A model generated the notes under the pieces. That model was not told the DNA's origin and made no database searches. It worked only from the letters and a program-made list of their open reading frames with translations. Below, piece by piece: positions 4,650 to 8,863 of a stretch of 64,000 nucleotides of DNA; within the stretch, counting starts at the first letter, position 1, and each line of letters starts with the position of its first letter. Source of the stretch: Bacteroidia bacterium (lineage in GTDB: Bacteria; Bacteroidota; Bacteroidia; Flavobacteriales; Flavobacteriaceae); contig JAUIJA010000009.1 in NCBI GenBank assembly GCA_030431055.1, positions 14,665-78,664 of the forward strand. Direction: 5' to 3'. Made by a program: the position numbers and the translations under genes.

Positions 4650-7600
4650 AATTTGTAATAGATGAATTCGTTTTAGCTTCTTCTGTTTTAATTTTTTCTA
4701 ATTCTGCTTTTGCTTCTTCTACAACATCAGGATAATCGGTAAAGTTTTTAATCACACTTTCTAAAATGTAAGTCGCTTGGAAACTATCTTTTAATCCGTA
4801 GAAGTTTTTAGCCATTACTACTAAACCTTTTGCACCATAATATTTGTAACCCGAATAATCTTTGGCTATTTTTTGAACTATTTTATTAGAATCTTCAAAT
4901 TTTCCATCTTTATTTTTGAAATACGCATCGTAGAATAAAGCTTCAGCTGCTAATTCCCCTTTTGCGATTTTTAATAAATCGGCATAAGCTTGACGTGCTT
5001 TTGGTTCGTTACCAGTTTTCATAGCTGAACGTGCTACGATAATTTGAGCATCACTCTTAATTCTGTCGTCTACTTTATCGTTAGCTAAAACTTTATCAGC
5101 ATAAACTACAGCATTTGCATAATCTTCTTTTTCGTAATAGGCTTTCATTAAGTTTGATTGCGCATAGGTTACGTTTTGTGGAAATTCTGCTTCTGTTTCT
5201 AAACGTTTTAAAACAGGAATTGCATTTTGATAGTCTTTTGCTTTTAAATTCACTTGACATAAACGTGCCAATGCTTGTTCGGTAAACTCGTTACGTGCTT
5301 GATTAATTACAAACTCATAATGTTTAACCGAATTACTTTCTAAATCATCAGCAAAATATAATTGTGCCAAGTAGAAATTTGCTTTTAAAGCATGTAAACC
5401 ATTCGGGAATTTCGCCACATAACTACTAAATCCAGAAATCGCTTGTTTTGTATTGTTCATTAAATACTGTTTCTCCGCAGACTCGTAAGTTGTATTATCT
5501 AAATCGGCATTTGAAACCTCAACATAGCTTAATCCTTTTACCCATTCTGTATATTCATCGATACGTCCGTTATCTACATAAATTAAACGCGCCGTTGCAA
5601 CTGCTTGTAAAGCTTCTGGCGAATTTGGAAAATCGGCAGCCACTTTTTTGAATTTCACTAAAGCTGGTTCGCTTTTGTTGTTGTTATAATAAATTAAACC
5701 TTGTTTCAAGATAGATTTCGATTTGTATGAACTACTTGCATAATTTGCTATTAACTTATCGTAAGTAGCAATTGCTTTTTGTTCGTTATTTTCGTTTGTA
5801 TAGGTATTTCCTAATTCATACAAAGCATCATCTGCATATTGAGAATTTGGATACTTTTTTGCGAAAGCTTCTAAATCTTCAATTTTTCTTTCGTTTCTAC
5901 CTACAAATCCGTAGCTAATTCCTTTTTGAAATGCTGCATAATCACTATGAACACCATTCATTTCAATGGCTTTATTATAAGCATCCATTGCTGGCCAATA
6001 TTTAGCTGAAATAAAATTACAATCACCTAAACGTAAATAAGCATCGGTTTTACGCGTATTATCATTTTTAACCGTGCTTAAATAATCGGTAAAATGAGTA
6101 ATTGCATTGTCATACTCTTTTAATTTGAAGTAGGAATACGCAAGATTATAATTCACATTTGCATATTCAGGCGTTGAAGCAGCTTCGTTATACCCCATAA
6201 ATTGCTTGAAGCTTAACATGGCTTCGTTGTATTGATCCAAATTATATTCGGTTTCTGCTTTCCAAAACGTTGCTCGAGCCGTGAATTTTTGGTCTTTATT
6301 TTCTGAAATAGACTTTTTAAATAAATTAAAAGCTCCTTGATAATCACCATCAGTATACAATTCTAAACCTCTATAAAAAGCAACTTTTTGGTAAGCCAAA
6401 CGGTTTTCGGCTGTTTTATTTTTTTCTAATAAAGCTAAAGCTTCCGTATAATTTTTAGATGTGATATACGAACTAATCAATAAATTATTAATTTCTTGTT
6501 TATACGGTGTGTTTGGATATTTATCTAAATACGCATTTAACACTTCAGGAACCGACTGGTATGGATTTCCTAATTCGTAACTCAATTTTGCATAATTTAA
6601 AAACGCATCTTCTTGAATTTTTAAATCAAACTCCATTTCAGAAGCTGTTTTAAACGCATTTAACGCTTCTTGTTTACGATTAGTTTTTAAATAACATTCT
6701 GCCAAATGATAATAGGCATTTTGCGCTACGCTATCTTGTCCGTTAATAATTTTATTAAACTGACTGATTGCATTTTCGTAATCTCCGTTTTTATAATACG
6801 TATAACCTAATTGGTAAAAATCGGTATTATTCCATTTTCCTTTTTTTCCTCTGTAAGCTTGTAAATAAGGAAGCGCTTTGTCGTATTGTTTTAAATTGAA
6901 ATAACTTTCACCAATAATTTTAGACAATTCACTTTTTTCAGCAGCATTCGACTTTGGTAATTGTTCCAAACCTAAATCGATAGCTTTTTGAAAGTTTCCA
7001 AGCTTAAAATTCATATCGGCTTGAAAATAGCCCATTTTCTCTTTGTACTTATCTTGATCTGAAACTTGTTCGAAATATTGATTGGCACTATTATAATCAT
7101 CGGTTTCATACGACATATAACCTAAATAATATTTCGCCTGACTTCCGTATTTTTGAGAATTAACAACTTTGTTCAAGTATTTTTGCGCTTCTTTTTTATT
7201 TTTCAAGGTGAAGTTGGCATAACCCTTTTGAAAATTATATCGTTCTTTTTCGGCAAGTGACATACTAGAAGTATCCGCTTTATCGAACCATTCTAATGCT
7301 CTAGGGTAACTTCCTTCTGCAAAATAATAATGTGCAACTTCAATATAAGCTTGATTTTGTTTAGTACTTGTAGGGTAATCTTCTACAAATTTTTCAACCA
7401 TAGTATCAGCTCCAAATTGATTTAATCGAATAGCACAATTCGCAATATAGTAAGCACAATCCGCTTGCACTTCTTGATTAGTAGTTGAAGCTTTTACTTT
7501 TTCAAATATAATTTGTGCCGATTGATATTGTTTGTCTTTATATAATGCTGTTGCTTTTTCAAATTCTTTTAAATCGTGCGTATAAATTGCCGATTGTTGT

Positions 7601-7662
7601 GCAACTGAAATAACTGGCGTTGCCGAAAGTAAGAATAGTGAAAGTCTAAATACTTTTATCAT
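4648..7662 (-). CDS. Large periplasmic tetratricopeptide-repeat protein
   Basis: Many TPR units and a signal peptide. Start 7662 preferred because a TATCTTTG box (7687-7694, minus) overlaps the longer start. Confidence 0.9.
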   Translation of the reverse strand: MIKVFRLSLFLLSATPVISVAQQSAIYTHDLKEFEKATALYKDKQYQSAQIIFEKVKASTTNQEVQADCAYYIANCAIRLNQFGADTMVEKFVEDYPTSTKQNQAYIEVAHYYFAEGSYPRALEWFDKADTSSMSLAEKERYNFQKGYANFTLKNKKEAQKYLNKVVNSQKYGSQAKYYLGYMSYETDDYNSANQYFEQVSDQDKYKEKMGYFQADMNFKLGNFQKAIDLGLEQLPKSNAAEKSELSKIIGESYFNLKQYDKALPYLQAYRGKKGKWNNTDFYQLGYTYYKNGDYENAISQFNKIINGQDSVAQNAYYHLAECYLKTNRKQEALNAFKTASEMEFDLKIQEDAFLNYAKLSYELGNPYQSVPEVLNAYLDKYPNTPYKQEINNLLISSYITSKNYTEALALLEKNKTAENRLAYQKVAFYRGLELYTDGDYQGAFNLFKKSISENKDQKFTARATFWKAETEYNLDQYNEAMLSFKQFMGYNEAASTPEYANVNYNLAYSYFKLKEYDNAITHFTDYLSTVKNDNTRKTDAYLRLGDCNFISAKYWPAMDAYNKAIEMNGVHSDYAAFQKGISYGFVGRNERKIEDLEAFAKKYPNSQYADDALYELGNTYTNENNEQKAIATYDKLIANYASSSYKSKSILKQGLIYYNNNKSEPALVKFKKVAADFPNSPEALQAVATARLIYVDNGRIDEYTEWVKGLSYVEVSNADLDNTTYESAEKQYLMNNTKQAISGFSSYVAKFPNGLHALKANFYLAQLYFADDLESNSVKHYEFVINQARNEFTEQALARLCQVNLKAKDYQNAIPVLKRLETEAEFPQNVTYAQSNLMKAYYEKEDYANAVVYADKVLANDKVDDRIKSDAQIIVARSAMKTGNEPKARQAYADLLKIAKGELAAEALFYDAYFKNKDGKFEDSNKIVQKIAKDYSGYKYYGAKGLVVMAKNFYGLKDSFQATYILESVIKNFTDYPDVVEEAKAELEKIKTEEAKTNSSITN

Positions 7663-7844
7663 TTTTGTAGATTGCTTTAGTGACATCAAAGATACTATTT
7701 CATTATGGTAATAACGAAAAGAGCATCTATTATATTGTACTTTTTTTAAACAGATTTATTAACGATATTTTTATCTAATGTTCGTTTTTTACTATTTATT
7801 TTCTTTATTCATTCGTTTATATTTTCTTTTTATTTGTATTCATG

Positions 7845-8007
7845 AATGCTTTGCATTTGCTTGTCCAAAGAAAACGAATCAAAAGGAAGGACACTTTTAC
7901 GAGGAATTTTTAATTTTCGATTAAAACCATCTGAAAAACTCTGCGGACTTTGTCCTGAATTTCAGAGCTTTTTCAGATTATTCTGCGTAAAAGAATTGCA
8001 AAGCATT
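7845..8007. repeat. Structured MITE-like or ncRNA-like element
   Basis: 11-bp terminal IR AATGCTTTGCA/TGCAAAGCATT, internal stems CTTTTACG/CGTAAAAG and ATCTGAAAA/TTTTCAGAT, possible pseudoknot TGTCC/GGACA. Confidence 0.65.
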
Positions 8008-8179
8008 GCTTTACTTAATAACTATTTACATTATTCAGAAATACAAAAATCTCATTTAATTTTCATCTTAATTATCGGCACTATCAATATTCTTCACATT
8101 GAAATTAATTTATAAATTAAAATTTTGTAACCGAAAATTTAGTTCTTATTTTTACGAAATATTTCATTTAAGTAAAAGT

Positions 8180-8863
8180 ATGTCAACTACAATATTATCC
8201 TTACAATCGGCGAATATTTATCAAGAAAAAAACCCAATTTTAACCAATGTTTCTTTAGATGTAAATCGTGGAGAATTTATTTATCTAATAGGGAAAACTG
8301 GAGCTGGAAAAAGTAGTTTTTTAAAAACTCTATATGCCGATTTACCTTTAAAAGAAGGAAGCGGAACTATTGTAGATCATGATTTACGAAAACTGAAAGA
8401 AAAAGACATTCCGTATTTACGTAGAAAATTAGGCGTTGTTTTTCAAGACTTCAAATTATTACCAGATAGAAATGTTAAGGAAAATCTTTTATTCGTTTTA
8501 AAAGCTACTGGCTGGACTGTAAAAGAAGAAATGAATCGCAAAATCGATGAAGTTTTGGATAAAGTTGGCATGAAAAACTATCAAAATAAAATGCCGCACC
8601 AACTTTCTGGTGGTGAACAACAGCGAATTGCAATTGCTCGTGCTTTATTAAACGACCCTGATTTAATCTTAGCTGACGAACCAACAGGAAATCTTGATCC
8701 ACAAACTAGTGTGGAAGTAATGGAATTATTGCGCAAGATTAATGAAAACGGAAAAACTATTGTAATGGCAACTCACGATTATGCTTTGTTATTAAAATAT
8801 CCTTCAAAAACCTTGAAATTTGACGAAGGAAAAGTTTTTGAAGTTGTACAAAGAAAGGTTTAA
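8180..8863 (+). CDS. ftsE: Cell-division ABC ATPase FtsE-like
   Basis: GKTGAGKS, LGVVFQDFKLL, LSGGEQQR, LADEPTGNLDP; start MSTTILSL at 8180. Confidence 0.85.
   Translation: MSTTILSLQSANIYQEKNPILTNVSLDVNRGEFIYLIGKTGAGKSSFLKTLYADLPLKEGSGTIVDHDLRKLKEKDIPYLRRKLGVVFQDFKLLPDRNVKENLLFVLKATGWTVKEEMNRKIDEVLDKVGMKNYQNKMPHQLSGGEQQRIAIARALLNDPDLILADEPTGNLDPQTSVEVMELLRKINENGKTIVMATHDYALLLKYPSKTLKFDEGKVFEVVQRKV

Follow-up and report, generated by a model that had tools for sequence, protein, structure and literature searches.

In this work, we analysed a 64,000-nt stretch of DNA (hereafter the window) from the genome of a flavobacterium (Bacteroidia bacterium, assembly GCA_030431055.1; contig JAUIJA010000009.1, positions 14,665 to 78,664), and focused on the spacer that separates a TPR-protein gene from ftsE. 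The initial annotation had singled out in this spacer a 163-bp multi-stem element at 7845-8007. This element is one of six genome copies of a gene-less, strongly folded repeat. The family probably consists of multi-copy structured RNA repeats devoid of open reading frames (ORFs), ending at their 3' side in a triple-helix pseudoknot and spreading in a mobile-like manner. The evidence comes from (i) the copies themselves, (ii) base pairs that covary with a bias for one strand, (iii) a pseudoknot loop whose sequence follows that of a purine strand in parallel sense and (iv) a ~48-nt 3' module common to several phyla, which ties the element to the TwoAYGGAY RNAs.

Copies, sense strand and covarying fold

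A genome-wide blastn search, one of the checks that had been suggested, retrieved four copies from the host genome (88-100 % identity), so the element is not single-copy; covariance model R1 added two diverged copies (C35:200708-200863 and C35:392439-392606). R1 matched the window at 7847-7993 on the minus strand (121.1 bits, E = 1.7e-33). In the alignment of the copies, the conserved unit did not coincide with the limits first drawn: the region 7845-8007 is real, but the true extent is longer, i.e. about 7795-8015, because a 5' hairpin and a distal tail belong to the element (Table 1). Conservation stops directly after ...AAAGAAAAUGAA. Multiple copies, patchy distribution, absence of ORFs and a strongly covarying fold agree with the early suggestion of either a MITE-like repeat (MITE, for miniature inverted-repeat transposable element) or a structured non-coding RNA (ncRNA). 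An invertible segment had been regarded as less likely, and nothing in the analysis contradicts this rejection. No Rfam family matched the window at 7600-8250 (cmscan, E <= 10), and this includes Flavo-1, which had been named as a motif to look for.

Folding energies were compared with those of dinucleotide shuffles. For the stretch 7840-8012, the plus strand reached -48.3 kcal/mol (z = -4.28, none of 200 shuffles being as good) and the minus strand -45.9 kcal/mol (z = -3.51). All the pairings described earlier were found in the sequence, at the same coordinates or a few bases off: CTTTTACGAGGAAT pairs with ATTCTGCGTAAAAG (7894-7907 with 7980-7993, 86 % complementary), ATCTGAAAAA pairs with TTTTTCAGAT (7929-7938 with 7969-7978, 100 % complementary) and encloses GGAC-TTT-GTCC, and TGTCC (7862-7866) is complementary to GGACA (7889-7893).

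By sequence comparison, the sense strand is the minus strand of the window, on account of three observations. R1 matches this strand; the 13-bp hairpin UUCGUUUUCUUUG/CAAAGAAAAUGAA (S2) holds a conserved G·U pair, where the plus strand would have an A·C mismatch; and an alignment of 92 sequences read on the minus strand contains 271 G·U or U·G pairs vs 51 A·C or C·A pairs.

As judged from the comparison of copies, the fold comprises a basal stem (P1/P1b), a three-way junction with hairpins P2 and P3, and then an H-type pseudoknot. From 5' to 3' on the minus strand, the order is a hairpin (P0) with a U-rich stretch, both optional and found in some subfamilies, then P1, a conserved CAGNAUA, P2, GG, P3, AAAAAUNCC and the 3' strand of P1; P1b is formed by GNAU of CAGNAUA with ANUC in AAAUNCCU. 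The pseudoknot module lies directly 3' of P1 and reads S1(5') - L1 - S2(5') - S1(3') - AG - S2(3'). The length of the Bacteroidota copies, counted from the start of the basal stem onwards, is ~150-165 nt. Their bodies are of two types: type A bears a GAAGCCUUGGA apical loop, whereas in type B, to which the window copy belongs, there is an internal loop GAAAUUCA and the apical hairpin varies.

The covariation of these helices was assessed on three sets of copies. RNAalifold, applied to a plain MAFFT alignment of 27 diverse copies, recovered P1, P1b, P3 and S2, with 19 of the 38 pairs compensated. Among 14 hand-picked type-B copies, 94.2 % of the cells pair vs 81.1 % in shuffled alignments and at most 56 % in slid controls, and compensatory double changes occur at 22 pairs, three of the four pairs of S1 included. 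Finally, in the 92 Bacteroidota copies aligned to R1, 93.9 % of the cells pair vs 73.0 % after shuffling (slid controls <= 61 %), 49 of the 52 pairs are compensated, compensated cells number 941, and none of 500 shuffles reaches any of the five measures.

The possible H-type pseudoknot that had been proposed from the complementarity of TGTCC and GGACA corresponds to stem S1; it covaries among copies and forms on the minus strand. A test of covariation for these five bases had been called for, and compensatory changes were found at all four counted pairs of S1 in the 92 sequences. S1 exists as GUCC/GGAC, GCCC/GGGC, CGUC/GACG, AUCC/GGAU, CUC/GAG and GGCCC/GGGCC. The distal pairs of S2 vary across phyla (UUCG/UGAA, UUAC/GUAA, UGAC/GUCA, CCCA/UGGG and CAAC/GUUG). 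The strands thus follow the H-type order S1-L1-S2-S1'-S2' and both stems covary, S2 doing so at its distal and top pairs among phyla and diverged copies. In the two diverged copies of the host genome, the modules are fully compensated: at C35:200708 (L158), the top S2 pair changes from G-C to A-U and the distal UUCG/UGAA to CAAC/GUUG, and at C35:392439 (L159), the C·G-C triple described below becomes U·A-U, all three positions being switched.

Parallel covariation of L1 and a 3' module common to several phyla

In pyrimidine-motif major-groove triples, i.e. U·A-U and C+·G-C, the third strand runs parallel to the purine strand, and it is L1 that, in an H-type pseudoknot, passes across the major groove of S2. 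In the family, the L1 consensus UUUCUUUU mirrors the S2 5' arm UUUUCUUU and is complementary to nothing nearby; read with U replaced by A and C by G, it gives the S2 purine strand AAAGAAAA in parallel sense.

Sequence variants of the ~48-nt module were gathered with a module-only model (R2), from which the variation of S2 reported above was also drawn. The parallel match between L1 and the purine strand is kept across more than 12 sequence variants, listed here as purine tract / L1: A3GA4 / U3CU4, A4GA3 / U4CU3 (six independent sequences), A4GA4 / U4CU4, A5GA4 / U5CU4-5, A5GA2 / U4CU2, A2GA4 / U2CU3, A3GA5 / U6CU5, A2GAGA3 / U3CUCU3 and pure A6-8 / pure U6-8. In 30 of 35 distinct sequences, as many U follow the C as A follow the G. 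Asymmetric tracts (n = 27) fit the parallel expectation in 22 cases and the antiparallel one in a single case, and eight of the 10 tracts without an A-G-A pattern face an L1 without C. The placement of U on A-U and of C on G-C in parallel sense, as required of a third strand, is therefore borne out by covariation. From these data, we infer that L1 lies in the major groove of S2, where it would form ~8 U·A-U triples in a row and a single C+·G-C triple. Mirror repeats are not produced by any ordinary mutational process, so that the most economical interpretation is selection for a triplex, the triplex itself being a prediction from the sequences. The prediction that follows from the three-way covariation is a sharp one, namely that a bacterial RNA contains a long triple helix of U·A-U and C+·G-C.

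According to a 2026 review (PMC13541005), bacterial triple helices occur mainly as short ones in riboswitches, plus a group II intron, and nothing like the ~48-nt module is described there. The pseudoknots of the SAM-II, SAM-V and preQ1-II riboswitches and of telomerase RNA (PMC13541005, PMC7583470) have the topology predicted for the module, with L1 in the S2 major groove and parallel pyrimidine-motif triples. The module differs from them in its greater length (a predicted ~8-10 consecutive triples on a 13-bp stem), its location at the 3' end of the unit, the many copies per genome, the lack of a consistent downstream gene and the fact that no ligand is implied.

An exact 28-base pattern of the module was found at more than 120 loci in Bacteroidota, Desulfobacterota, Gammaproteobacteria (Rhodanobacteraceae, Chromatiales and Rodentibacter) and Nitrospirota. 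The module also occurs in plasmid or chromid records of Pseudoalteromonas, Aeromonas, Burkholderia, Ralstonia, Pasteurella, Ilyobacter, Haliovirga and others, so that overall it spans, almost unchanged, Bacteroidota, Desulfobacterota, Proteobacteria, Fusobacteriota and Nitrospirota. R2 matches were obtained in 27 of the 301 sampled Bacteroidota genomes and in 24 of 143 genera (1-16 copies each), a count that is a lower bound owing to strict filters. Distribution is patchy at short range as well. By blastn, something similar is carried by 10 of 61 close relatives and most congeners lack the element; its most conserved 43 nt are also present in other Flavobacteriales, and one congener (G032) holds at least 13 copies, partly in tandem. 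Near-identical copies occur in strains of Tenacibaculum, Dokdonia, Leeuwenhoekiella and Maribacter. No match to the element was found in the phage collection.

The module was also found behind an already described RNA. In Pseudoalteromonas NC201 (L150), the body of the Rfam family TwoAYGGAY (RF01731) lies directly 5' of the module (56.7 bits; gathering score 43 bits) and the Rfam model ends where the module begins. A gammaproteobacterial locus (L060) has a TwoAYGGAY match of 44 bits ~40 nt upstream of the module. With these two loci as positive controls, TwoAYGGAY gave no match in the window at 7600-8250 (E <= 10), and seven other Bacteroidota and Desulfobacterota loci had no Rfam match at E <= 1. 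The terminal loops of the window copy are AAA (P2b) and CGAAA (P3), without AYGGAY; many Bacteroidota relatives bear one GAAGCCUUGGA loop in place of the two AYGGAY loops. Taken together, the sequence comparisons identify the module as a cassette common to several phyla and placed behind differing bodies, and the window element is placed in a TwoAYGGAY-related superfamily, of which it represents a Bacteroidota branch; it is best regarded as a relative with the same 3' module and overall plan, and not as a member of RF01731 as defined.

TwoAYGGAY (Weinberg et al. 2010, PMC2864571) and the window element are both multi-copy, intergenic, unassociated with particular genes and expanded in a mobile-like manner, and the extended architecture of the former, a basal stem with hairpins and then a 3' pseudoknot, is similar as far as its description goes. 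The window element differs by its lack of AYGGAY loops, by a body built as a different three-way junction and by a host phylum without CsrA. A preprint (10.64898/2026.09.22.753630) describes TwoAYGGAY in Pseudomonadota with a lengthened basal stem, additional hairpins and "a 3' pseudoknot", an extension found mainly in this phylum; it reports extreme copy-number variation, doublets and flanking repeats, suggests that these RNAs bind Csr/Rsm and spread in the manner of mobile elements, and makes no mention of a triple helix. In the window element, the pseudoknot directly follows the basal stem, and its likeness to the "3' pseudoknot" of the preprint is one of description only. The function of TwoAYGGAY has been open since 2010, and the shared 3' module ties the Bacteroidota elements to this problem. 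More generally, Rfam does not capture a large, strongly structured non-coding family of Bacteroidota, nor its relatives in Desulfobacterota and Fusobacteriota.

On a Burkholderia cepacia plasmid (L151, lpdA-aceF interval), the Rfam small RNA Bp1_Cand684 was matched at 1534-1645 (118.8 bits). This match begins inside the S2 3' arm of the module, which means that an annotated Burkholderia small RNA candidate overlaps the module.

Mode of action and competing explanations

In the structured-RNA reading that we consider probable, transcription on the minus strand would yield either a small RNA of ~170-220 nt or longer read-through transcripts that include the element. A compact end resistant to 3'-to-5' exonucleases would be provided by the pseudoknot with its triple helix, as it is in eukaryotic ENE/MALAT1 RNAs by theirs, the variable hairpins would present protein- or RNA-binding loops, and the family would spread as a non-autonomous mobile element through a function supplied in trans. 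The analogy with ENE, MALAT1, PAN and the ENE-like structures of plant and fungal transposons extends to a U-rich clamp on an A-rich 3' tract with a single C+·G-C interruption, to the position at the 3' end and to the association with repeated or mobile sequences, and it provides the model for an exonuclease-blocking role. The architectures differ: in an ENE, which is a stem-loop, a U-rich internal loop binds a downstream A-tract, whereas the element has an H-type pseudoknot; moreover, its host is bacterial, and a stabilising function is proposed for it by analogy. A bolder proposal, on balance doubtful, is that the ~48-nt module is an ancient, undescribed RNA device exchanged between phyla, with 8-10 consecutive major-groove triples, which caps the 3' end of a superfamily of multi-copy, mobile small RNAs with interchangeable bodies, TwoAYGGAY in Proteobacteria and the present three-way junctions in Bacteroidota, and either protects them from 3' exonucleases or marks them for a conserved partner; it would then be the bacterial counterpart of ENE/MALAT1. 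Such a triple helix would be well suited to structural studies and might be used as a transferable element for RNA stability.

Several observations weigh against action as a triplex-ended RNA. The TAnnTTTG motif, i.e. the -7 box of Bacteroidota, lies upstream of 9 of 83 copies, as in controls, and the assembled metatranscriptome contigs show a uniform, DNA-like depth. The 92-sequence alignment was fitted to model R1 and its members were fetched by an exact S2 pattern, so that the invariance of S2 there is by construction. L1 is joined to the distal end of the 13-bp S2 by no more than 2 nt, so that complete pairing of S2 and a complete triplex may not coexist and may alternate instead. Together, L1 and the S2 5' arm make up a mirror repeat of the kind that classically forms H-DNA in duplex DNA, so that H-DNA may be involved, and the covariation and the G·U bias are also compatible with a single-stranded DNA intermediate. 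Finally, the somewhat degenerate window copy may have lost its function.

Some of these points would fit a mobile element acting at the DNA level, in which the hairpins and the triplex would serve a single-stranded or supercoiled DNA intermediate that a transposase or recombinase would recognise (REP/RAYT, IS200/IS605, IS110 or H-DNA) and the RNA would have no role. We regard this as rather unlikely, although several points would suit it: the element is multi-copy and patchy, it forms tandem arrays ~500 bp apart in a congener, internally deleted copies exist, no promoter of its own was found, and in Pseudomonas putida a MITE bearing a small RNA is moved by an IS110 transposase (PMC12288879). 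In the congener G032, the arrays extend over ~12.4-13.6 kb of contig C20 (L016, L019 and L020) with spacings of 184-590 bp and 3' flanks conserved among units; in some units, P2 is enlarged by an insertion of ~90 nt, and there is a second type of element that has only the end of the S2 hairpin in common and continues as ...CCTGTAGGGGCGACC... A further point is the pyrimidine mirror repeat TTTCTTTT...TTTTCTTT, which is of the sort classically associated with H-DNA. Yet H-DNA needs neither the S2 purine arm in cis nor S1, and both covary; the conserved G·U and the 271:51 excess over A·C favour an RNA-type pairing on one strand. No mobiliser was found. Y1/RAYT (PF01797), the partner that defines REP/REPIN elements, is absent from the host genome and from G032 and was detected in control genomes; an IS110 transposase is present in only two of eight carrier genomes; no transposase stands beside the element at ~120 loci; and no target duplication was evident at four junctions. 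Unlike a classical MITE, the element has a terminal repeat (11-14 bp) that is copy-specific and not family-wide, without duplication or adjacent transposase. Thus, with MITEs, REP/REPIN-RAYT systems and MITEPpu9 with its ssr9 (PMC12288879), the element shares being short, ORF-less, intergenic, variable in copy number, patchy and tandem or nested, and it differs by these missing features, by a more elaborate and conserved fold with a core common to phyla, and by the fact that neither IS110 nor reverse transcriptases track it. Ssr9/MITEPpu9 is an analogy only, being a different RNA. Integron attC sites, TnpB/IscB omega-RNA, IS110 bridge RNA and UG27 ncRNA were also considered and rejected, no adjacent partner gene, defining motif or Rfam match being found. 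The host genome has one IS110-family transposase gene (C44:1330-1758, 51.7 bits) and one reverse transcriptase gene (C48:3725-4246, RVT_1, 52.9 bits, in a 312-codon frame), neither of them near any copy.

The explanations that keep an RNA role and assign it another function appear far less probable. A sponge of the CsrA/Rsm type, whose GGA loops would sequester a global regulator as proposed for TwoAYGGAY, is very improbable here. It would draw on the relationship through the shared 3' module, on the conserved GAAGCCUUGGA loop of many Bacteroidota copies and on the Csr/Rsm binding discussed in the same preprint (10.64898/2026.09.22.753630). However, the window subtype is without conserved GGA loops, its conserved motif being the internal loop GAAAUUCA, and the CsrA gene (PF02599) is absent from the host and from five other carrier genomes (six in total) and was detected in control genomes; these carriers argue against a purely Csr-sponge explanation for the superfamily. 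Little room, too, is left for a template or scaffold RNA of a reverse transcriptase, whether as UG27-like arrays, as a retron or as an analogue of short interspersed nuclear elements (SINEs) whose 3' tail would be the entry point of the enzyme; this we hold to be a shade less credible than the sponge. With their size of ~150-165 nt, their pseudoknot and their tandem arrays in a congener, the units do recall those of the UG27 ncRNA, which are pseudoknotted and measure 149 or 167 nt; a reverse transcriptase gene is present in the host genome, and variable bodies joined to a conserved 3' tail are the pattern of SINEs and long interspersed nuclear elements. UG27 units, however, form an array beside a reverse transcriptase and accessory genes, with AUCN7UANAG and UUYA bracketing a central hairpin. 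Here, no reverse transcriptase stands beside any copy, none is encoded by two carriers with 16 and 12 copies, and AUCN7UANAG was not found by eye in the window copy, where UUYA is present as UUCA.

A cis-regulatory leader (riboswitch or attenuator) of ftsE on the plus strand or of the TPR gene on the minus strand, with alternative pairings around an AUG as expression platform, seems to us the least credible of all. It was prompted by the four close genome copies, each of which is oriented towards the gene that follows it (the TPR gene, pyrG, a serine hydrolase gene or mutS), an arrangement in one orientation whose chance probability is ~1 in 8. In addition, S2 covers an AUG preceded by an A-rich tract, and SAM-II-type riboswitches use the same pseudoknot-triplex fold (PMC13541005). 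We dropped it on the orientation count: across 98 loci, the downstream neighbour is co-oriented at 44 and opposite at 54 (upstream, 38 vs 37), and the downstream genes are unrelated. The ORFs that follow the AUG are 2-30 codons long and unconserved, and there is no Rfam riboswitch match. A relation to ftsE, upstream of which the initial annotation had placed the element, is not supported either, since the model matches the minus strand and no orientation preference exists across these loci.

Protein coding was also rejected. The plus-strand ORFs differ in frame between copies, and the minus-strand ones that start at the conserved AUG are the short, unconserved frames just mentioned. An 89-codon ORF (7846-8115, plus strand) crosses the element and is spurious, because its counterparts in other copies are frame-shifted or truncated; it exemplifies how easily members of the family can be mis-called as small ORFs or proteins. 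All-against-all clustering of ORFs revealed no protein family that recurs within 3 kb of ~120 loci, and yielded housekeeping coincidences only (purD four times, ribF three times, histidine kinases five times). The purD cases (L036, L066, L085 and L086) are from four unrelated lineages, Saprospiraceae, Robertkochia, Rodentibacter and a gammaproteobacterial metagenome-assembled genome; this proximity may be coincidence or a preferred insertion neighbourhood.

The window copy and its surroundings

The features of the window copy are listed in Table 1. The region 7795-8015 sits in a divergent spacer of 490 bp, counted as 518 bp in the comparison with congeners below.

Table 1. Position of the element copy, its parts and the flanking genes in the window; pairs compensated refer to the family comparison, and sequences are those of the minus strand unless stated otherwise.
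Feature	Position	Strand	Basis or remark
Whole element copy, ~221 nt	7795-8015	minus	Homology among genome copies; R1 match
P0, 5' hairpin GUAAAGC-AAU-GCUUUGC, then U-rich stretch; terminator-like	7998-8014	minus	Covaries among close copies
P1, basal stem	7986-7993 with 7894-7901	minus	8/8 pairs compensated in 92 sequences
P1b, 5' strand within conserved CAGAAUA	7980-7983 with 7904-7907	minus	4/4 pairs compensated (92 sequences)
P2, long hairpin (span 7929-7978)	7963-7978 with 7929-7943	minus	10/10 outer and 5/5 inner pairs covary
P2b, apical hairpin GGAC/GUCC	7952-7955 with 7945-7948	minus	Sequence varies among copies, pairing kept
P3, hairpin UUUUAAU-CGAAA-AUUAAAA	7908-7926	minus	6/7 pairs compensated
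S1 5' arm, UGUCC (plus strand: GGACA)	7889-7893	minus	Pairs with 7862-7866
L1, predicted third (Hoogsteen) strand, UUCCUUUU	7881-7888	minus	Parallel mirror of S2 purine strand
S2 5' arm, UUCGUUUUCUUUG	7866-7878	minus	Fold, copy comparison
S1 3' arm, GGACA (plus strand: TGTCC), within S2 loop	7862-7866	minus	Covariation
Insertion of 49 nt in S2 3' arm, subfamily-specific	7807-7855	minus	Source of left "terminal IR" (inverted repeat) arm
Distal tail UAAAGAAAAUAAA, displaced S2 3' arm (purine strand)	7795-7807	minus	Inverted repeat I3
TPR-protein gene	end near 7662-7689	minus	Neighbour of element
ftsE	ATG at 8180	plus	Neighbour of element

In this copy, the conserved internal loop GAAAUUCA is carried on the 5' side of P2, and P3 is flanked by the conserved GG and AAAAAUUCC. 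P0 takes a different sequence in each of the four close copies (GCAAAGC/GCTTTAC, ACAATGC/GCATTGT, CAAAGC/GCTTTG and GCAAGGC/GCCTTGC). In the wider set, with a cut-off on fold energy, a hairpin is present in the 40 nt upstream of 30 of 83 Bacteroidota copies vs 20 of 83 for the 40 nt downstream.

The terminal inverted repeat noted earlier is present (7845-7858 with 7994-8007, 14 nt, 93 % complementary), but it is not a family feature: as a defining end of the MITE type, it is restricted to this copy and, imperfectly, to one other, because it results from the 49-nt insertion in the 3' arm of S2, the last stem. Among the genome copies, the insertion (46-49 nt) is confined to the window copy and C35:69393, and in the window copy it breaks the S2 3' arm after GCAAA. 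The displaced arm is recognised as inverted repeat I3 (7794-7806 with 7867-7879, 85 % complementary); by reading, the distal tail UAAAGAAAAUAAA can still close S2 with 12 of 13 pairs, and the sister copy C35:69393 keeps UAAAGAAAAUGAA at this place. L1 of the window copy has one U-to-C change relative to the family consensus. Because of this change and of the insertion in S2, the window copy appears somewhat decayed, or it represents a variant with a long third loop. Its own message is modest: it is an inserted copy with no evidence of ftsE regulation.

The TPR-ftsE synteny is kept in nine congeners, with a spacer of ~160-310 bp vs 518 bp here, i.e. 200-350 bp longer in the window. A marine-metagenome contig whose flanks are ~98 % identical (11 differences in 470 nt) is without the 349 bp of 7770-8118 and carries 12 bases (CTTTTATGGTGG) in their place, so that the strain-variable segment extends beyond the element by ~25 nt at one end and by ~100 nt at the opposite end. 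When metagenomes were screened again for clean empty sites, the outcome was noisy.

Elsewhere in the window, the element model gave a weak match on the minus strand at 1551-1683 (18.9 bits, E = 7e-4). This segment comprises a basal stem of 8 bp, then a U7 tract, and a short hairpin whose end is GAAAAUGAA; it may be a relic of a related element.

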